Of a stretch of DNA of 56,801 bases, positions 3,155-14,854 are shown one piece after another. Source of the DNA: a virus (Duplodnaviria > Heunggongvirae > Uroviricota > Caudoviricetes); the IMG/VR virus record IMGVR_UViG_2529293216_000012. One strand, written 5' to 3'. The notes beneath the pieces are model-generated. The model had not been told where the DNA came from. It made no database searches and saw only the letters and a program-made list of their open reading frames with translations. Positions within the stretch are counted from its first letter, which is position 1. Every line of letters begins with the position of its first letter. A program made the position numbers and the translations under genes.

Positions 3155-3516
3155 TATGCTCCAGCCTCCGGTGCTTTTGGCATTACTGCCCAGTGAGTGA
3201 TATTGACGTTTTCAAGGTCCCCGACCTGAAATGTCCACTGCCATTCTCCGGTTTCTTTTTGTCCCCAGGTGTACCAGAGAGAACGCCAGCCAATTAGCCA
3301 GCCTTCTCCGTTAGCATCGAATAACAAAACACTTTCATTTGCTGGTGGCAGTTCAGTTGACACTGGTATTACTTTGTTTTCCTGTGCTGCACATTTAGCT
3401 TCAAGCGCATCGAATTTACGCACCAGGTATTCAGCATCTGTTTCATTCACTTTCAGATCTCGCGGTACACATCTCCCACGAAGAAACCCTTCCATTTCGA
3501 AAACATTCATGCGCAT
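3154..3516 (-). CDS. hypothetical phage protein, DUF551-like
   Basis: 120 aa, Trp-rich C-terminal region (WLIGWRSLWYTWGQKETGEWQW) typical of DUF551 early-region proteins of lambdoid phages. Confidence 0.55.
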   Translation of the reverse strand: MRMNVFEMEGFLRGRCVPRDLKVNETDAEYLVRKFDALEAKCAAQENKVIPVSTELPPANESVLLFDANGEGWLIGWRSLWYTWGQKETGEWQWTFQVGDLENVNITHWAVMPKAPEAGA

Positions 3517-4070
3517 TTGCGTAACTCCGATAACTCGTTAAAACGTTCCATAAACATCCCGTAGGCATGGCCCGGTGCCTGTGGAATCACTTTGAACATC
3601 TCTGTTGCCGGGATACCTTCCAGTACAGGCCAGAAAGAGCCATCATCAAGCCCGAGATCGCGGCGTTCGGTTGCCAGCATAATGAGATCGGCATATTTCA
3701 CTGGCGTGCTCATAACAGGAGGTAACCCGTATTTCTCACGTATTACGGCGTCTATTTTTTCTTCCATCCGTTTATAGTCAGGAAGAAGTCGTTTCAGTGG
3801 TGCGGGGATGTCCTGGCAATATGCTTCTGTTGCATCATGCATTAAAGCTTCAAAAGCAAATTCCTGTGGCACCAGCTGGCTGCAAAGCACCGCATGTTGG
3901 GCGACACTGTAGAAGTGTGAAAGATGTCCTGCAAAGCGACAGATATTTGAAAGGGAAACCGCGATATCGTTAATAACGATGTCGTCTTTATTTATCCTGT
4001 CATAATAAAAATGCTTCCCGGAAAAAGTTTTAATAAATGACATTTTGTTCTCCACGTATATGCGCTGCAC
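3507..4070 (-). CDS. HD-domain phosphohydrolase (YfbR-like 5'-deoxynucleotidase family)
   Basis: 187 aa with HD motif context (ALMHDATEAYCQDIPAPLK); overlaps the downstream ORF by 10 nt. Confidence 0.65.
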   Translation of the reverse strand: MQRIYVENKMSFIKTFSGKHFYYDRINKDDIVINDIAVSLSNICRFAGHLSHFYSVAQHAVLCSQLVPQEFAFEALMHDATEAYCQDIPAPLKRLLPDYKRMEEKIDAVIREKYGLPPVMSTPVKYADLIMLATERRDLGLDDGSFWPVLEGIPATEMFKVIPQAPGHAYGMFMERFNELSELRKCA

Positions 4071-9186: not shown

Positions 9187-9468
9187 GTGAAAAAAAATCT
9201 CATTGCATGGGCGTGGTCGAGTGGTCTTATTGAGTTTGGTTACGTCCTGCCGGAAGGTGCATTGCCGATAGTTGCCGGAAAGCCTGCCACGGTACGGCAT
9301 GTGATTGAGGTTATGGCGCGTCATGGACGTGATGAACAGGAGCAGTTACTGGTTCCGGGGATACCGGAAGCGGTGACGGAGGAAGAAGCCTTTAATGCCA
9401 TGATTCGGTTCTGCCGTGAGGTCAGACGCCGGGTCAGTTATCCAAACAGAACGAGGACCAGAGGATGA
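9187..9468 (+). CDS. hypothetical Mu-like early protein
   Basis: 93 aa, GTG start one nt after the upstream stop; no family recognised. Confidence 0.5.
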   Translation: MKKNLIAWAWSSGLIEFGYVLPEGALPIVAGKPATVRHVIEVMARHGRDEQEQLLVPGIPEAVTEEEAFNAMIRFCREVRRRVSYPNRTRTRG

Positions 9469-9737
9469 GTAAAGTCGTACGCATTATTTTCGAATACAAG
9501 GAGCACGTTATCCATAAAAACGCTGATGGAACAGTGCGCATGGGGGTAAGTCTGGACATACGTTCAACCGGGATAAAGCAGAAAGGTGATGGACCCGCCA
9601 TGATTTTTGGGGTGGTTATGCTCGCGGAAAGCAGAGACTTTGCTGAACTTGTGGCAATGAAAGCCAGTGCGCTCATGAAAGATATGAGCATGCGTTCCGG
9701 GGTTATTAAAGGTAATGAATTTAATCAGCAGGGGTAA
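9465..9737 (+). CDS. hypothetical early protein, paralog 1 of a tandem pair
   Basis: 90 aa, MSKVVRIIFEYKEHV...; shares its N-terminal motif with the next ORF. Confidence 0.55.
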   Translation: MSKVVRIIFEYKEHVIHKNADGTVRMGVSLDIRSTGIKQKGDGPAMIFGVVMLAESRDFAELVAMKASALMKDMSMRSGVIKGNEFNQQG

Positions 9738-9741
9738 TTCC

Positions 9742-10035
9742 ATGAGCAAAGTACGCGTTATTTTTGAATTTAAGCATGTTTCGCATGACGAAAAACCGGC
9801 AGGCAATGACTGTGTTGAAGTGCATGAAAAGATTGGTGTGGATGTAAAAACAGAACGTGATACGAATAACAGGCCGACGTCACTCTGTGACGTTTATGCA
9901 AGTATTCTCCAGTATCACAGTCCTGAAATTATTCAGTTTCTCTCAGCGGAATTTCAGGCATCTGTACAGGCTTTTGGGGCGGATGCCATCATTAAACGCC
10001 ACCGCGTGCATAAAGCATCAGGCACACTGCAATAA
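9742..10035 (+). CDS. hypothetical early protein, paralog 2 of a tandem pair
   Basis: Internal start of track ORF 9715..10035 (MSKVRVIFEFKHVSHDE) chosen by similarity to the preceding paralog. Confidence 0.5.
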   Translation: MSKVRVIFEFKHVSHDEKPAGNDCVEVHEKIGVDVKTERDTNNRPTSLCDVYASILQYHSPEIIQFLSAEFQASVQAFGADAIIKRHRVHKASGTLQ

Positions 10036-10046
10036 GGAAAAACAAA

Positions 10047-10577
10047 ATGGCTAAACGTGTTACAAAATTAAAGGCCGCAGCCGAGGCTGCACCGCAGACC
10101 CGCGAAGAAGTCAGCCGCGATATCCGTACCCTGGGCGATATTCAGCGAGAGGCGCTGCGGCTGGAAACGGCGATGAATGATGAAGTGGCAGAAATCACCG
10201 CCCGTTATACGCCGCAGATTGAAAACCTTAAAAAAGAAATCAAAGTGCTTTTTAAGGGGATTCAGGACTGGTGCAAAACCAACCGCGATGAGCTGACGAA
10301 CGGCGGCAAAACCAAAACAGCCAATCTGACCACCGGAACAGTATCATGGCGGCTGGGAAATCCATCATGCAGCGTCAGCCGTGATGTGGAAGGTGTGATT
10401 GAAATGCTGCGCCGTATGGGGCTTGAGCGATTCATCCGCACGAAAGAGGAAGTGAACAAGGAAGCGGTCCTGGCGGAGCCGGATGCAGTGAAAGGCATTG
10501 CCGGTATTAAGGTGAATAAAGGCGCTGAAAGTTTTTATGTCGAGCCTTTTGAACAGGACGCCGGACTGAATAAATAA
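10047..10577 (+). CDS. gam: Mu Gam-like (Ku-like) DNA-end-binding protein, host nuclease inhibitor
   Basis: 176 aa; strong resemblance to Mu Gam (RLETAMNDEVAEITARY...DELTNGGKTKTANLTTGTVSWR...ERFIRTKEEVNKEA). Confidence 0.9.
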   Translation: MAKRVTKLKAAAEAAPQTREEVSRDIRTLGDIQREALRLETAMNDEVAEITARYTPQIENLKKEIKVLFKGIQDWCKTNRDELTNGGKTKTANLTTGTVSWRLGNPSCSVSRDVEGVIEMLRRMGLERFIRTKEEVNKEAVLAEPDAVKGIAGIKVNKGAESFYVEPFEQDAGLNK

Positions 10578-10674
10578 CACCGCATTAAATCTTTAAATAT
10601 CACATCGTTTTAAGTATGGCGCTCGCGTCAGGGGACTGCCTGCGCCTGTAAACTGAAAATAAGGAACAGGATAT

Positions 10675-11217
10675 ATGGCATATTTTTATTTCAAATTAGA
10701 CCGTGTGCAGACAAATAAATATTTCACCAAATATCAACAGACTGTTTTACCGCTACGCAACAGTATTCTTCGGGCATTACTGAAAAATACAGGCGCTGCC
10801 GGATTGCGCTTAAAGCCGTTCGCCATGGACGTAATCAGTGAGTTTTATTTTTCTGGTTCTCTGCCTGCGGGCTGGCGTAAGCGCGATGATGTGGCTTTTA
10901 TCGGGGACGGACCGTGCTTTATTGCCAGACCTGATGAGTCATGCCCTGAAGGTCCGGCGATTGCCGCAATGATTGAAACCGCTGAACGTGAGTTAAGAAA
11001 GCGTCCTGATTTCCTTGTCTGGCTCTGTGAAAAGCTGGGGGTAATGAGAATCCCCTCCATGTTTAACACGGACTCCTGGTGGACCCCGTCGCTCTCCCGT
11101 GATGCCCTGTGCGTGGTGTTTAAAGTAGGCGCTTATGGCAGGGAAATAAAAGGGGGTATTCCTGAAGAATGCCAGGAAATTAAACATTCTGAATATGTGG
11201 CGCTGACGGAGGAATAA
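10675..11217 (+). CDS. hypothetical protein (accessory region)
   Basis: 180 aa ORF with an upstream GGA-rich RBS region; no family recognised. Confidence 0.55.
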   Translation: MAYFYFKLDRVQTNKYFTKYQQTVLPLRNSILRALLKNTGAAGLRLKPFAMDVISEFYFSGSLPAGWRKRDDVAFIGDGPCFIARPDESCPEGPAIAAMIETAERELRKRPDFLVWLCEKLGVMRIPSMFNTDSWWTPSLSRDALCVVFKVGAYGREIKGGIPEECQEIKHSEYVALTEE

Positions 11218-11220
11218 TTC

Positions 11221-11754
11221 ATGATTGATGCAAAAGTGCTTGAAGGGGTTAAAAGCTGGCTGCGTTTTTCTGGCCGTCTGACCAGTCGTTCTCTGGCAGA
11301 AAAAATGAATATGCCGCTATCCTCCATGGTTTATTTTCTGCGTGATGCGGTCGATGCCGGGGTGCTGACGGACCGTAACGGTTTTTATGATATTCCGCGT
11401 CCCCGCCCGGTGCAGGCGGTTCGTCGCAAATGCAGCCAGGAAGGTGCGGCTGATGATGTTCAGTGGTGCAGCTTCAGAAAATCCCTGCCGTGGATTGAGG
11501 GGCATGATATTCCGTCGATGGCGTGGGAATTTGCTCAGGGAGTACTGACCTGCGAAACCGTTTATGTGGTGGCTGAAGTTGATGAGCAGGCCATGAAAGA
11601 AGGCGTGCCCCAGTTTGTGATGGCGTATATCGACATTCGCCTGGGCGTCATTATCTGCGGCTTAAGCGGCTGGAACATCACCGGGCGCGTTCTGCGTTAC
11701 CTGATTATTGACCGGACAGCGGCATCGGCAGGGATATCTGCGGAGGTGGCGTAA
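11221..11754 (+). CDS. hypothetical protein with N-terminal winged-helix-like segment
   Basis: 177 aa; starts 4 nt after the upstream stop; N-terminus LTSRSLAEKMNMPLSSMVYFLRDAVDAGVL looks like an HTH. Confidence 0.55.
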   Translation: MIDAKVLEGVKSWLRFSGRLTSRSLAEKMNMPLSSMVYFLRDAVDAGVLTDRNGFYDIPRPRPVQAVRRKCSQEGAADDVQWCSFRKSLPWIEGHDIPSMAWEFAQGVLTCETVYVVAEVDEQAMKEGVPQFVMAYIDIRLGVIICGLSGWNITGRVLRYLIIDRTAASAGISAEVA

Positions 11755-12269
11755 TGTTCTTTAAAACATCAAACCCTTCCGCGCTGGCTGCGTGGCAAAA
11801 ATACCAGCAGGACTGCCAGAAAGTTAAGGATGAGGCAAAACGCCTTGAGGCCGTGCTGAATGTTGCGTGCCGGTCGGTATTTGTATCCGGTATCAGTGGA
11901 TTTTGCTTTAAGGGACTGCGTTTTACGGAGGACAAATATCCTTTTCATCGCGACTTATGGCGAAAACCGACTGCGTCGAATGGCTGGAGCTGCACACCGC
12001 GCACATCACGTATCCCTAAAACCCTGCGTGTTGCCTCTGATGAACTGAACAGTCTGTGGCGTGAATATTCGCCCGTCACGTATGCCAGAACCGATGCGCT
12101 GTTGTTCTGGCTGGGTATTGATTTCTCGGCAATCCTGTTTGGCCCTGTGAAGTGGTTCTGCGTTGACGATGTGATTTACCTTCAGTGCGGCGTAAAACCC
12201 GCAAAACAGAAAATGACCGAAATACTGTCTGATGAGTTTTATGCTGCTGAAAAGCGAGTCAGGGGGTGA
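11754..12269 (+). CDS. hypothetical protein (accessory region)
   Basis: 171 aa; start overlaps the upstream stop; no family recognised. Confidence 0.55.
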   Translation: MFFKTSNPSALAAWQKYQQDCQKVKDEAKRLEAVLNVACRSVFVSGISGFCFKGLRFTEDKYPFHRDLWRKPTASNGWSCTPRTSRIPKTLRVASDELNSLWREYSPVTYARTDALLFWLGIDFSAILFGPVKWFCVDDVIYLQCGVKPAKQKMTEILSDEFYAAEKRVRG

Positions 12270-12272
12270 TGC

Positions 12273-12824
12273 ATGATGAAATTACAACCCATGGGACTAA
12301 AAGGTCGCGCCCCCGCTCATGTCCGTCCGTGGACACCTGAAGAAGATGCGCTGCTGATTGCGCTTTATTCATCCACCCCGGTTAAGGATATTGCTGCCAG
12401 AATAAAAAGAACTGTCTGGGCTGTATATAACCGGACTGGTGTATTGCGCAGTTCATACCCGGAGTTACTGAAATATAAACACCCAAGATTTACACCTGAT
12501 GAAGATAAGTTTATTCGAAAAAATGCCAGAACAATGACCTGCCAGCAAATGGGAGAATATCTCGGACGTAATAAAGATTCTGTCAGATGTCGGGCAGGAA
12601 TGATTGGTGCTGGATTAACAAAGTGCGGAGAGTTACGCCCCGGCACGCGCATATCTGATGATGATGTACGTCTTATACGTGCGCTGCGTGATTCCGATTA
12701 CCCACGCCGTCTGTCATTCCGGGAAATTGGCGAAAAGTTTGGAATATCTGAACATTCTGCTCACGCAGTTTATTACCGTCGCCGGACTGCCGAGGACGCT
12801 GTATTACGGGAGTTAACGCCATGA
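12273..12824 (+). CDS. hypothetical DNA-binding protein with two Myb/SANT-like repeats and a C-terminal HTH
   Basis: 183 aa; RPWTPEEDALLIALY and RFTPDEDKFIRKN repeats, then LSFREIGEKFGISEHSAHAVYYRR. Confidence 0.55.
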   Translation: MMKLQPMGLKGRAPAHVRPWTPEEDALLIALYSSTPVKDIAARIKRTVWAVYNRTGVLRSSYPELLKYKHPRFTPDEDKFIRKNARTMTCQQMGEYLGRNKDSVRCRAGMIGAGLTKCGELRPGTRISDDDVRLIRALRDSDYPRRLSFREIGEKFGISEHSAHAVYYRRRTAEDAVLRELTP

Positions 12825-13006
12825 TAAAGAGACTTGTATTTTTCGCAATTTTCGTTCCGGTGTTGGGGGGTGGTTTTATATTTGCGATTACAGGAAACCT
12901 GTCCATGATGCCAGATATTTGGTTCTTTATCAGGATGTCGCTCTTCCTGTTTATTATGAATCTTCTTATCGACATATATATCCGTATTACTGGAAAACAT
13001 AAATGA
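12821..13006 (+). CDS. small hydrophobic protein (two predicted TM helices)
   Basis: 61 aa, strongly hydrophobic (LVFFAIFVPVLGGGFIFAI / FFIRMSLFLFIMNLLI); overlaps neighbours by 4 nt; AT-rich. Confidence 0.45.
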   Translation: MIKRLVFFAIFVPVLGGGFIFAITGNLSMMPDIWFFIRMSLFLFIMNLLIDIYIRITGKHK

Positions 13007-13377
13007 GAAAAATCACGTCCTTGTCAGAGTTACAGGAGATGAATATGAGTATTGAATTAAGATCGTCTTATGAGTATCGCAAATTTCTTATCGCCGGAGG
13101 CATGAAACCGGAAGATGTGGAAAAAATCGTTTCTTTTATGGATAAGGAATGTGATAAGCGGGATGTGTCAGAAATTATTATGGATGACATGATTCTGGAT
13201 TCAGTCGTGGCGTTAAGTCCGTTATGGATTGTGCATTCTCTTGCGGAAATTGCCAAAGGCACCGATAAACAGGCAGCTGTTGCTGCCCTTCAGACGCTTA
13301 ATGAAATGCGTATATCTCCACGCCCGACATTAATACAGATGATTTTGTCCAGTATGGAGGATAAAGCAAATGAATAG
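13003..13377 (+). CDS. hypothetical acidic protein
   Basis: 124 aa, translationally coupled, AT-rich codon usage unlike the flanking phage genes. Confidence 0.5.
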   Translation: MRKITSLSELQEMNMSIELRSSYEYRKFLIAGGMKPEDVEKIVSFMDKECDKRDVSEIIMDDMILDSVVALSPLWIVHSLAEIAKGTDKQAAVAALQTLNEMRISPRPTLIQMILSSMEDKANE

Positions 13378-13567
13378 TCTACCCGCTGGATGGGCGCGCC
13401 CTCTGATGGCTAAGAAGCATCATTTTTTTAAAACTGGCGATAATATCAGTATATGTAGGCGGTGGTTATATCTGGCTCATAATCGCGAGCCGGATACATT
13501 TGAAAGCCCTGATGACTGTGCCGAATGTCGCAGAAGACTGAATAAGGAGAAAGATAATGGACAATAG
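13370..13567 (+). CDS. small hypothetical protein with Cys pairs (possible zinc ribbon)
   Basis: 65 aa; ICRRW...DDCAECRRR; overlaps neighbours. Confidence 0.4.
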   Translation: MNSLPAGWARPLMAKKHHFFKTGDNISICRRWLYLAHNREPDTFESPDDCAECRRRLNKEKDNGQ

Positions 13568-13853
13568 TTCTCTGTTGTTCTGGTGCTTATATATCACATC
13601 CTTTTTCGGCGCATTTGTTATTACCCGGTGGTTATGTCGAAAAATCATCTGCTTTTTTGATAAAAGACATCTGGTTGAACGGGCGGCTGATGCGCTCATT
13701 CAGCAGGCCATTGTGTTATATAGCGGTGAATTTTTCTGCCGGATAACAACCAGAGATGGCTGGCACATAATGATTATTCCACCAACACACCATGCCCGGT
13801 GGGATGAGGCAGAAAAGGCTTTCCATGTCCGTAAAAAGGTAAATACGGTATGA
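13557..13853 (+). CDS. hypothetical protein with N-terminal TM helix
   Basis: 98 aa; LLFWCLYITSFFGAFVI hydrophobic N-terminus; overlaps the gemA-like start. Confidence 0.45.
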   Translation: MDNSSLLFWCLYITSFFGAFVITRWLCRKIICFFDKRHLVERAADALIQQAIVLYSGEFFCRITTRDGWHIMIIPPTHHARWDEAEKAFHVRKKVNTV

Positions 13854-14359
13854 GAGGAAAACTGATATCCGCCATTCATGTGGCAAAGCGCGAGCTTGCC
13901 CTGGATGATGAGACTTATACATCCGCGCTGCTGGCAGCCACCGGCAAAACCAGCTGCCGGGATATGTCACCGGATGAGTTATCCCGCGTGCTGGATGTTT
14001 TCAAAAAACGCGGTTTTAAAGTGCGTCAGAACCCGGTTAACCGGGCCTTAAAACCGGGTACGGTGACCGCCAAAATTCGCGCCATCTGGAAGGTGATGCA
14101 CCGGCAGGGCTTTATCACCGATGGTGCGGAAACCGCCCTTAACCGCTGGGTGAAATCGCAGACGGCCGCGCAAAACGGCGGCGAAGGTGTGGCAAACTGG
14201 CAGTGGCTGGAGCAACACCCCGCCCTGGCCTCAGATGTGCTGGAGCGTCTCAAGCGATGGCACCGCCGCAAAATGCTGGCCGCGATGGGAATGCCCGAAC
14301 GCACGCTGATGGGGTATGACGCCGTTTGCAGGCAGTATGAAAAATCACTTCCCCGTTAA
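13850..14359 (+). CDS. gemA: Mu GemA/gp16-like regulatory protein (DUF1018)
   Basis: 169 aa; position immediately before mor and similarity to Mu gp16. Confidence 0.75.
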   Translation: MRGKLISAIHVAKRELALDDETYTSALLAATGKTSCRDMSPDELSRVLDVFKKRGFKVRQNPVNRALKPGTVTAKIRAIWKVMHRQGFITDGAETALNRWVKSQTAAQNGGEGVANWQWLEQHPALASDVLERLKRWHRRKMLAAMGMPERTLMGYDAVCRQYEKSLPR

Positions 14360-14363
14360 CTCC

Positions 14364-14394
14364 AAATCCCGCCACAACGCGGGATTTTTATTTT
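14364..14394 (+). terminator. rho-independent terminator-like hairpin between gemA and mor
   Basis: ATCCCGC-cacaac-GCGGGAT 7-bp stem (14366-14385) followed by TTTTTATTTT. Confidence 0.5.
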
Positions 14395-14428
14395 AAACTT
14401 ACCGGGAACGCGAGAACCGGAGGCTGAT

Positions 14429-14854
14429 ATGGCAGAAACTCAGATGAGCATGTTTGGTGGTGACAGTGAGCAACTGCACGCCCTTATCGACCGCCTTGAT
14501 GACATCCCTGATGATGTTCTCAAAAAGAACTGGCCGCGGACCCTGTCAGAACTGGTTGAAGTCACCGGCGCAGAACTTCAGCGTCAGGGGATTGAGCCGG
14601 TACTGGCCGGTAAACTGGCACGCAAGGTGGCTGCGGCTCAGGCAGCCTATATGGGCGGACGGGGTTATTACCTGCCGGTCGGGGAATCTCTCTTTGCCGA
14701 GCTGCGAAACAATGAGATATTTTCGCGCTGGGACCGGGGCGAGAAAATTGAATCCCTTCGCCGCCATTACCGGATGTCAGAAACCCAGATTTATACCGTC
14801 ATACGCGAACAGCGCCGTCTGCATCTGGCAAGAACGCAACCGCCACTTTTCTGA
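14429..14854 (+). CDS. mor: Mor/C-family transcriptional activator
   Basis: 141 aa; C-terminal HTH (YRMSETQIYTVIREQRR) typical of Mu Mor/C; precedes the lysis and late genes. Confidence 0.82.
   Translation: MAETQMSMFGGDSEQLHALIDRLDDIPDDVLKKNWPRTLSELVEVTGAELQRQGIEPVLAGKLARKVAAAQAAYMGGRGYYLPVGESLFAELRNNEIFSRWDRGEKIESLRRHYRMSETQIYTVIREQRRLHLARTQPPLF

Follow-up and report, generated by a model that had tools for sequence, protein, structure and literature searches.

ORF1-ORF4, the four genes that follow gam in the early operon of this Mu-like prophage, are probably four separate accessory modules which occupy slots of fixed order, each slot filled or empty, and not one multi-subunit system. In the window (the whole stretch of 56,801 nucleotides that was analysed) they lie within the early operon, in the semi-essential early (SEE) region of a Mu-like prophage of the E. 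coli O157 type, and the context of a Mu-like early accessory region proposed in the initial annotation is thereby borne out. The SEE region is lengthy and weakly conserved, and encodes small proteins lacking characterised function (PMC8705779; PMC3820752). The functions of the Mu SEE genes are a decades-old question, and the window does not bring a new class of element to it; our analysis gives a map of the constant gene gp11 versus the interchangeable genes, which can guide experiments.

Organization of the Early Region

The region has the following components.

10047..10577, + strand: gam, Mu Gam-like DNA-end-binding protein, left anchor of the variable array
10578..10674, + strand: post-gam non-coding spacer, conserved; the variable modules start just 3′ of it
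10675..11217, + strand: ORF1, 180 aa, ATG start; remote DUF5420-like protein, PHROG 2260; optional, replaceable slot
11221..11754, + strand: ORF2, 177 aa, ATG start; phage Mu gp11 orthologue
11754..12269, + strand: ORF3, 171 aa, ATG start; phage Mu gp12 orthologue
12273..12824, + strand: ORF4, 183 aa, ATG start; two Myb/SANT-like repeats and a C-terminal HTH; optional
12821..13853, + strand: four small coupled early ORFs of 61, 124, 65 and 98 aa (12821-13006, 13003-13377, 13370-13567 and 13557-13853), between ORF4 and gemA
13850..14359, + strand: gemA (Pfam GemA, 3.2e-30), right anchor
14364-14387: terminator-like hairpin directly after gemA, from the terminator scan

The gam product matches Pfam Phage_Mu_Gam at 1.5e-41 and has 57% identity with Mu Gam. 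The coordinates and sizes previously given for the four ORFs are exact, but eight ORFs lie between gam and gemA, the four smaller ones following ORF4.

The genes ORF1-ORF4 are separated by +3, -1 and +3 nt, and a Shine-Dalgarno-like motif precedes every start. They had been described as tightly coupled, which is correct; the same holds throughout the operon, however, where the 16 genes running from B to gemA are all closely packed with gaps of -23 to +11 nt and the only exception is the 97 nt between gam and ORF1. Because this packing is operon-wide, a four-gene unit is not defined by spacing. Promoter and terminator scans of the early operon gave no convincing internal promoter and no strong internal terminator, and the four genes would be transcribed within the long early operon. 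No match to the Mu left-end sequence was found at three or fewer mismatches.

All four ORFs have full-length homologues elsewhere, and in pairwise comparison with three related prophages their dN/dS is 0.05-0.62, which resembles that of gam and gemA. These are therefore real genes, and they are under purifying selection. The GC content of the variable genes ORF1 and ORF4 is lower than that of gam, ORF2 and gemA.

Distribution of the Four Genes among Related Prophages

Do the four genes travel together? We compared 66 non-identical gam..gemA regions, mostly from E. coli and Salmonella prophages. The array has the order gam, ORF1-like gene, DUF5420 gene, gp11, gp12, Myb-like gene, small ORFs and gemA, in which the ORF1-like, DUF5420, gp12 and Myb-like genes are optional. 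These four are present or absent independently while the order is fixed, and 12 gene combinations occur, the window's own combination in 14 of the 66 regions. Partial versions include Gp11 alone, Gp11 with Gp12, ORF1 with Gp11, Gp11 with Gp12 and the Myb protein, a DUF5420 gene in place of ORF1, and the Myb gene without Gp12. In Salmonella variants either the Myb gene or the Gp12 gene follows Gp11. Phage Mu has homologues of ORF2 and ORF3 only, without ORF1 and ORF4, and in Mu-like phages of Yersinia an ORF1-like gene accompanies an ORF2-like one. The small ORFs in front of gemA are variable in related prophages as well.

The only gene found in all 66 regions is gp11, whose constancy is partly a sampling effect since most loci were retrieved through gp11 itself and the sample consists mostly of E. 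coli and Salmonella prophages. Muvirus-type phages carry Gp11 consistently, and it is confined to them. ORF1 was detected in 28 of the 66 regions; in close E. coli relatives its slot is either empty or filled by a DUF5420 gene. Within one genome pair the dS values of neighbouring genes lie up to 14-fold apart, which shows a mosaic history.

The initial annotation had read ORF1-ORF4 as one functional unit, a host-takeover, anti-defence or exclusion cassette with interdependent parts. The four genes are indeed co-directional, closely spaced and similar in size, their arrangement recurs in the 14 regions mentioned, and the wider gam-gemA stretch is present in 232 of 5426 complete E. coli genomes. 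The Myb gene is usually found together with the Gp12 gene (26 of 28 regions), so a functional link between these two may exist, and the strictly kept gene order could reflect more than recombination history. Across the 66 unique regions, however, the components neither co-occur consistently nor are lost together: all partial combinations exist, Mu keeps only the pair ORF2 and ORF3, relatives of Gp12 are solitary in unrelated phages, coupling extends along the whole operon, and each gene has a separate history of divergence. The missing co-occurrence in related prophages already largely refutes the single cassette, which we regard as extremely unlikely.

Comparison of the Individual Proteins

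The four ORFs had been reported as belonging to no known family. Their function is indeed uncharacterised, and we found no functional study in the literature on gp11/gp12, DUF5420 or anti-defence in the Mu early region; but ORF2 belongs to PF25754, the homologues of ORF3 belong to PF26885, and all four ORFs have PHROG matches. An NCBIfam scan of the four proteins gave no match, and PDB searches with their single sequences and family profiles gave chance-level matches only.

The middle pair is the best defined. Mu gp11 (Mu_11, AAF01088) and gp12 (Mu_12, AAF01089) are full-length homologues of ORF2 and ORF3 in the same order, with the same overlapping stop/start junction, and are likewise without assigned function. 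In Mu this pair stands directly downstream of gam, whereas in the window there is an extra gene before it (ORF1) and another after it (ORF4), and the small genes further downstream differ.

ORF2 is assigned to the gp11 family by Pfam PF25754 Gp11_C (2.7e-39, 133.8 bits, cutoff 27). Its identity with Mu_11 is 63% across 177 aa and it keeps the position after gam; ORF2 is the orthologue of Mu gp11, earlier called E10-E12. In this protein a disordered linker joins a winged-helix N-domain to a beta-rich Gp11_C domain. On superposition with known winged-helix domains, the N-domain shows their three-helix bundle and wing.

ORF3 has 54% identity with Mu_12 over 169 aa and lies directly after gp11. 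Precomputed matches to PF26885 Phage_Mu_Gp12 were present on all 46 clusters of ORF3 homologues, 94%-identical ones included; the family assignment is made through these homologues and the identity to Mu_12. On these comparisons ORF3 is the orthologue of phage Mu gp12 (formerly E13) and a member of the Phage_Mu_Gp12 family. The structure model of ORF3 is confident and of alpha+beta type, and a fold search with it returned no fold relative in the PDB. The family thus has a confident model and no solved structural relative, though it is present in several unrelated phage groups. Relatives of gp12 also stand alone, without Gp11, in unrelated Klebsiella, Vibrio and Acinetobacter phages, where they lie in early regions near genes of recombination and DNA metabolism (Bet, DNA ligase, dUTPase). 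Across these unrelated phages no conserved neighbour of Gp12 was found. A profile search of the genome contigs with the Gp12 alignment detected one locus only.

ORF1 matches phrog_2260 at 2.5e-74 and is a remote relative of DUF5420. The ORF1 and DUF5420 families align in hhalign with Prob 99.2% and E 5e-20, and a DUF5420 HMM made from related loci matches ORF1 at 1.2e-14. Pfam PF17457 (DUF5420) itself, with a gathering threshold of 26 bits, gave no match to ORF1 at E<=1, so that ORF1 falls outside the Pfam family; the same model scores 15 bits on the Salmonella ORF1-like protein versus 41.6-52 bits on true DUF5420 genes of the same slot. Like ORF1, the DUF5420 proteins of Mu-like prophages (e.g. 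SfMu gp11 in RefSeq naming) occupy the gam-gp11 slot and have similar length, and both groups have the N-terminal YFKL and C-terminal IKHSE[YF]-x-A-x-TEE motifs. ORF1 differs in having only about 24-29% identity with true DUF5420 proteins. In Salmonella the ORF1-type and DUF5420 genes are adjacent, which indicates that they are distinct paralogous lineages. The dN/dS of ORF1 is 0.23-0.62.

ORF4 matches phrog_323, "transcriptional regulator", at 2e-52. Its repeats lie at about residues 17-62 and 70-113, and its C-terminal HTH at about 125-170. The two W-x-x-EED Myb/SANT repeats with a C-terminal HTH described earlier are Myb-like plus HTH as claimed, but only the first repeat has such a motif (W-T-P-E-E-D) and the second reads F-T-P-D-E-D. 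For a Myb assignment we required a score above the gathering cutoff with Myb_DNA-binding or Myb_DNA-bind_6; ORF4 alone stays below it, at 20.7 bits where 24.4 are needed and at 17.3 bits where 22.9 are needed. HMMER relatives of ORF4 score 38-148 bits, and many of its 1138 representative relatives are multi-repeat proteins well over the Myb_DNA-binding cutoff. Internal repeat similarity in ORF4 is weak, the observed score being reached by 9 of 500 and 24 of 500 shuffles. Its RefSeq names include "SANT/Myb-like DNA-binding domain-containing protein", and it occurs as two alleles of about 70% mutual identity. ORF4 is best described as a Myb/SANT-like multi-HTH protein, predicted to bind DNA.

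ORF4 resembles phage DNA-binding proteins with Myb/SANT- and GcrA-N-like HTH repeats (PHROG 323) in its repeated [WF]-T-P-x-E-D HTH units. Its relatives exceed the Pfam cutoffs for Myb_DNA-binding and GcrA, and these repeats also occur as the DNA-binding part of fusions with helicase, HNH or methylase domains. In contrast, ORF4 itself has two repeats and a third, more generic HTH, no effector domain, and sub-threshold Pfam scores.

Another RefSeq label of ORF4, "AsnC family protein" (AsnC/Lrp family), was rejected. It is unjustified because the AsnC_trans_reg ligand-binding domain is absent and the HTH_AsnC-type match is sub-threshold (19.1 bits, cutoff 27).

Some features are common to ORF1 and ORF3. 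Both ORF1/DUF5420 and Gp12 carry the motif [FY][FY]K[TL] at the N-terminus, with EI-x-x-SE[YF] at the C-terminus. In hhalign the ORF1 and ORF3 families gave E 0.51 initially, 0.05 with more sequences, and 0.0013 (Prob 18%), collinear over 152 columns, when distant Gp12 members were included; an HMM-versus-sequence search for this paralogy gave no match. The structural matches in BFVD, viral proteins of 182 and 194 aa with TM 0.78-0.82 and 17-22% identity, were counted in favour of a common superfamily, and Salmonella prophages carry up to three possibly related ORF1/DUF5420/Gp12-type genes in tandem. These results suggest paralogy of ORF1 and ORF3 but do not establish it. A wider proposal would unite ORF1/DUF5420 and Gp12 in one previously unrecognised superfamily of early phage proteins of about 175-195 aa, with a fold absent from the PDB, which diversified in tandem beside Gam (up to three copies in a row), spread singly to the early regions of the unrelated Klebsiella, Vibrio and Acinetobacter phages, and acts through stoichiometric inhibition of host DNA-repair or immune proteins. 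Taken as a whole this proposal is speculative and rather unlikely; one diversifying superfamily of DUF5420, ORF1 and gp12 beside Gam is a testable hint.

Possible Functions

Each of the four proteins would probably work alone and be dispensable for basic growth. ORF2 and ORF4, judging from fold and sequence, may be DNA-binding proteins that influence transcription or DNA transactions in the early phase of the lytic cycle. For ORF1 and ORF3 the most likely role would be stoichiometric binding of host proteins. Their conserved residues are mostly aromatic or hydrophobic, with short motifs at both termini (C-terminal EI-x-x-SE-[YF]), and inspection of these residues revealed no recognisable catalytic constellation. 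The host targets are probably to be sought in DNA metabolism, DNA repair or defence because of the location of both genes beside Gam, an antagonist of RecBCD. Early-region host-interaction genes are also known in Pseudomonas Mu-like phages. Like Mu kil, gam and gemA, the four ORFs are small, early-expressed, non-essential and variable between relatives, and they belong to the same operon; they differ from host-interaction proteins of this type in having no sequence or fold similarity to them. A host-interaction or anti-defence role for the four genes is plausible.

At least one of the four proteins, most plausibly ORF1/DUF5420 or Gp12, could inhibit host immunity or DNA-repair nucleases, the genes being kept beside Gam and exchanged between prophages as the result of an arms race. 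Presence or absence and allelic replacement in slots between conserved anchors would fit such an anti-defence island, as would early expression next to gam, the tandem genes of Salmonella prophages, the position of Gp12 relatives near Bet, DNA ligase and dUTPase, and the lack of an enzyme-like motif. On the other hand, a non-systematic look turned up no homology to a characterised anti-defence protein, dN/dS (0.05-0.6) gives no sign of positive selection at the whole-gene level, Gp11 is constant rather than variable, and variable early genes of phages include many non-immune functions. We consider an island of this kind possible but not likely. It is a more specific version of the independent-modules explanation and compatible with it. 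If any of the proteins proves to be an inhibitor of host repair or immunity, the slot array will be a useful source of more.

The genes might instead help the phage itself, boosting Mu-type replicative transposition or early expression, with the winged-helix and Myb proteins acting on phage DNA. Classical non-essential stimulatory functions have been genetically mapped to the Mu SEE region, and deletions of it cause a modest drop in replication and burst. DNA-binding folds in two of the four proteins, the restriction of the constant Gp11 to Muvirus-type phages and the operon common with A, B and gam agree with this. However, many natural relatives can dispense with ORF1, Gp12 and the Myb protein, Gp12 has relatives in non-transposable phages, and an unsystematic look revealed no conserved candidate binding sites. 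We regard such a helper role as rather unlikely.

According to a published proposal, low-level transcription from Pe runs across the SEE genes in Mu lysogens and may benefit the host (PMC3820752). Leaky expression of this kind in the prophage could protect or alter the host, for example through superinfection exclusion; but with no family of the PADLOC-DB defence models matching the four proteins at E<=1, no membrane or exclusion-type features in them and no promoter of their own found, this is very improbable.

Conserved Spacer Downstream of gam

In the spacer that separates gam from the variable modules, a hairpin, GGCGC (10618-10622) / GCGCC (10642-10646), comes after an AT-rich stretch. 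Rfam gave no match over 10000-14500, spacer included, and the folding energy of the hairpin is no better than that of shuffled sequence. The spacer is conserved from Mu through to this phage in an alignment of 43 unique spacers, and the hairpin has one compensatory change (GGCGT/ACGCC), present in two Salmonella loci.

Gene content and operon layout

The initial annotation placed four ORFs in a Mu-like early region, between gam and gemA, and regarded them as an uncharacterised cassette that would act as one functional unit. All four ORFs were confirmed:

10047..10577 (+): gam, left anchor
10675..11217 (+): ORF1, 180 aa
11221..11754 (+): ORF2, 177 aa, orthologue of Mu gp11
11754..12269 (+): ORF3, 171 aa, orthologue of Mu gp12
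12273..12824 (+): ORF4, 183 aa, Myb/SANT-like protein
13850..14359 (+): gemA, right anchor

They are genuine genes, since each has full-length homologues and their dN/dS values (0.05-0.62 against three relatives) lie in a range similar to those of gam and gemA. Purifying selection acts on all four. However, we counted eight ORFs in the gam-gemA interval, and tight coupling does not set the four apart. Gaps of -23 to +11 nt occur at every junction from B to gemA, with the sole exception of gam/ORF1 (97 nt), so close spacing is a trait of the early operon and not of a four-gene cassette. A promoter/terminator scan found no promoter-like or convincing terminator-like sites within the four-gene block, and ORF1-ORF4 are transcribed within the early operon.

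Distribution of the genes among related phages

We pooled 66 non-identical regions lying between gam (or the alternative DUF3164 gene) and gemA. These fall into 12 architectures, among them that of the window (14), gam-gp11 alone (13) and the Mu type (10). Counts for the single genes are 28/66 regions for ORF1, 14/66 for DUF5420, 44/66 for gp12 and 28/66 for Myb, and the order ORF1, DUF5420, gp11, gp12, Myb is invariant. Only gp11 was found in all 66, a constancy that is partly a sampling effect because most loci were retrieved through gp11. The four genes thus do not consistently co-occur, and the proposal of a single functional unit is not supported: they assort independently.

Individual arrays illustrate this. 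Mu has gam-gp11-gp12 only, SfMu has an ORF1-like gene, gp11 and an unannotated gp12, and Yersinia vB_YpM_3 has only the ORF1-like gene and gp11. The ORF1 slot of close E. coli relatives in IMG/VR is either empty or filled, by ORF1 or by a true DUF5420 gene whose identity to ORF1 is about 24%. In Salmonella prophages the ORF1-like gene adjoins DUF5420, and either Myb or gp12 lies 3' of gp11; the gene calls of one Salmonella locus (L071) include neither, though tblastn still detects a Myb-like stretch there. The gp11 gene is restricted to Muvirus-type phages; full-length gp12 relatives (25-30% identity) occur without it in Klebsiella Lastavirus phages, Vibrio phages, an Acinetobacter temperate phage and a Klebsiella Mu-like phage. 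These sit in early regions, and no conserved neighbour was found for them across those phages.

Within one genome pair the dS of adjacent genes varies up to 14-fold, and the GC of the variable genes ORF1 and ORF4 is below that of gam, ORF2 and gemA. Both facts indicate mosaic exchange. Two ORF4 alleles, about 70% identical as proteins, occur in prophages that are otherwise 90-99% identical (the window against the related loci L002, L006 and others). Between the window and L002, dS is 0.62 for ORF4 and 0.04 for ORF1, a sign that ORF4 may recently have been swapped for the other allele.

Conserved sequence at module junctions

Two junctions deserve separate description:

10578-10674 (+): post-gam spacer, an AT-rich stretch followed by a GGCGC...GCGCC hairpin (arms 10618-10622 and 10642-10646)
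11200-11223: ORF1/gp11 junction, compared with those of loci L006, L001 and L003 (SfMu, NC_027382)

About 75 nt of non-coding sequence directly 3' of the gam stop has been kept from phage Mu to the window prophage, whereas the identity of the proteins encoded on either side is no more than about 57-63%. A single compensatory change in the hairpin (GGCGT/ACGCC) occurs in two Salmonella loci, and the variable modules begin immediately 3' of the conserved stretch. Rfam gave no match to the spacer, and in folding energy the hairpin does not surpass shuffled sequence. Processing, pausing or a recombination boundary are candidate roles.

At the second junction, the C-terminal ...TEE-stop of both ORF1 and DUF5420 (acGGAGGaataa) doubles as the gp11 Shine-Dalgarno sequence. 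Mu, which has no ORF1, retains a remnant (tGAGGaataa) 5' of gp11, and in relatives without ORF1, such as L019, a 14-codon mini-ORF fills the gap. The junction of ORF1 (or DUF5420) with gp11 is itself conserved.

Protein families

Searches of PADLOC, NCBIfam and PDB sequences with ORF1-ORF4 gave no match for any of them. They are nevertheless members of catalogued families, in a part of Mu-like phage genomes already known to vary; the description as uncharacterised holds in that these families have no characterised function.

ORF1 matches phrog_2260 and has no homologue in Mu. On profile comparison it is a remote DUF5420 relative (hhalign Prob 99.2%, E 5e-20, full length), and it is matched at 1.2e-14 by an HMM made from the DUF5420 sequences of related loci. 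ORF1 does not reach the threshold of Pfam PF17457, which is reached by the gene standing in for it in some relatives.

It is possible that gp12 and ORF1/DUF5420 are distant paralogues. The two groups have in common their length, an N-terminal [FY][FY]K[TL] and a C-terminal EI-x-x-SE[YF], and deepening the profiles lowered the hhalign E value from 0.51 to 0.0013, the alignment remaining collinear across about 150 columns; the probability, however, stayed low (18%), which counts against paralogy. The ORF3 model matched unnamed viral proteins of 182 and 194 aa in BFVD (TM 0.78-0.82, 17-22% identity).

ORF4 matches phrog_323, "transcriptional regulator" (2e-52); its own Pfam Myb and HTH matches are sub-threshold. 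An exhaustive HMMER search gave 1138 representative relatives, some with helicase-domain fusions; the mycobacteriophage genes hit by tblastn carry the annotation HNH endonuclease or DNA methylase. Many relatives are long, with 3-11 repeats, and their scores against Myb_DNA-binding, Myb_DNA-bind_6 or GcrA lie far above the cutoffs; for this reason ORF4 is predicted to bind DNA and to comprise two Myb/SANT-like repeats plus a third HTH. Of the two W-x-x-EED repeats and C-terminal HTH first described, repeats and HTH stand, but W occurs in the first repeat only, the second being F-T-P-D-E-D.

Possible roles

The Mu semi-essential early (SEE) region is long and poorly conserved and encodes small proteins of uncharacterised function (PMC8705779; PMC3820752); ORF1-ORF4 belong to it, and the Mu-like early context given in the initial annotation is correct. 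Two of the four proteins have DNA-binding folds. We suppose that gp11 and the Myb protein would act soon after induction, binding DNA and modulating transcription or DNA transactions. The invariant positions of ORF1 and gp12 are mainly aromatic or hydrophobic; both proteins have short motifs at their termini, and nothing resembling a catalytic constellation was seen among the conserved positions. These two probably bind host proteins. Their targets may plausibly lie in DNA repair or immunity, given that Gam adjoins and that some gp12 relatives have Bet, DNA ligase or dUTPase genes in their vicinity. That the binders are aimed specifically at host immunity, as an anti-defence function, fits the slot-like gene turnover, but we consider it rather unlikely.

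Neighbouring genes

Upstream, the adjacent small early ORFs 9465-9737 and 9715-10035 have a common N-terminal motif, MSKV-[VR]-[RV]-IFE-[YF]-K, which suggests a tandem duplication with the true start of the second gene at the internal ATG 9742. A 61-aa ORF (12821-13006) overlaps the ORF4 stop codon. This ORF has the lowest GC of all in the operon (0.36), and its strongly hydrophobic product probably forms two membrane helices. It contains a weak terminator-like hairpin (12852-12873); the Mu record has a predicted terminator annotated at a comparable place, within Mu_14.

In SfMu the gp12 homologue (54% identity) lies in an unannotated 515-bp gap, at 3501-3944 of locus L003 (7500-7943 of the record). 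The match starts only at query residue 21; either the annotation missed a gene here, or the sequence is a pseudogene with a damaged N-terminus. In the Salmonella and Citrobacter loci L066-L071 a DUF3164 protein (212 aa) takes the place of Gam before the same variable array, which suggests that the two are functional alternatives.
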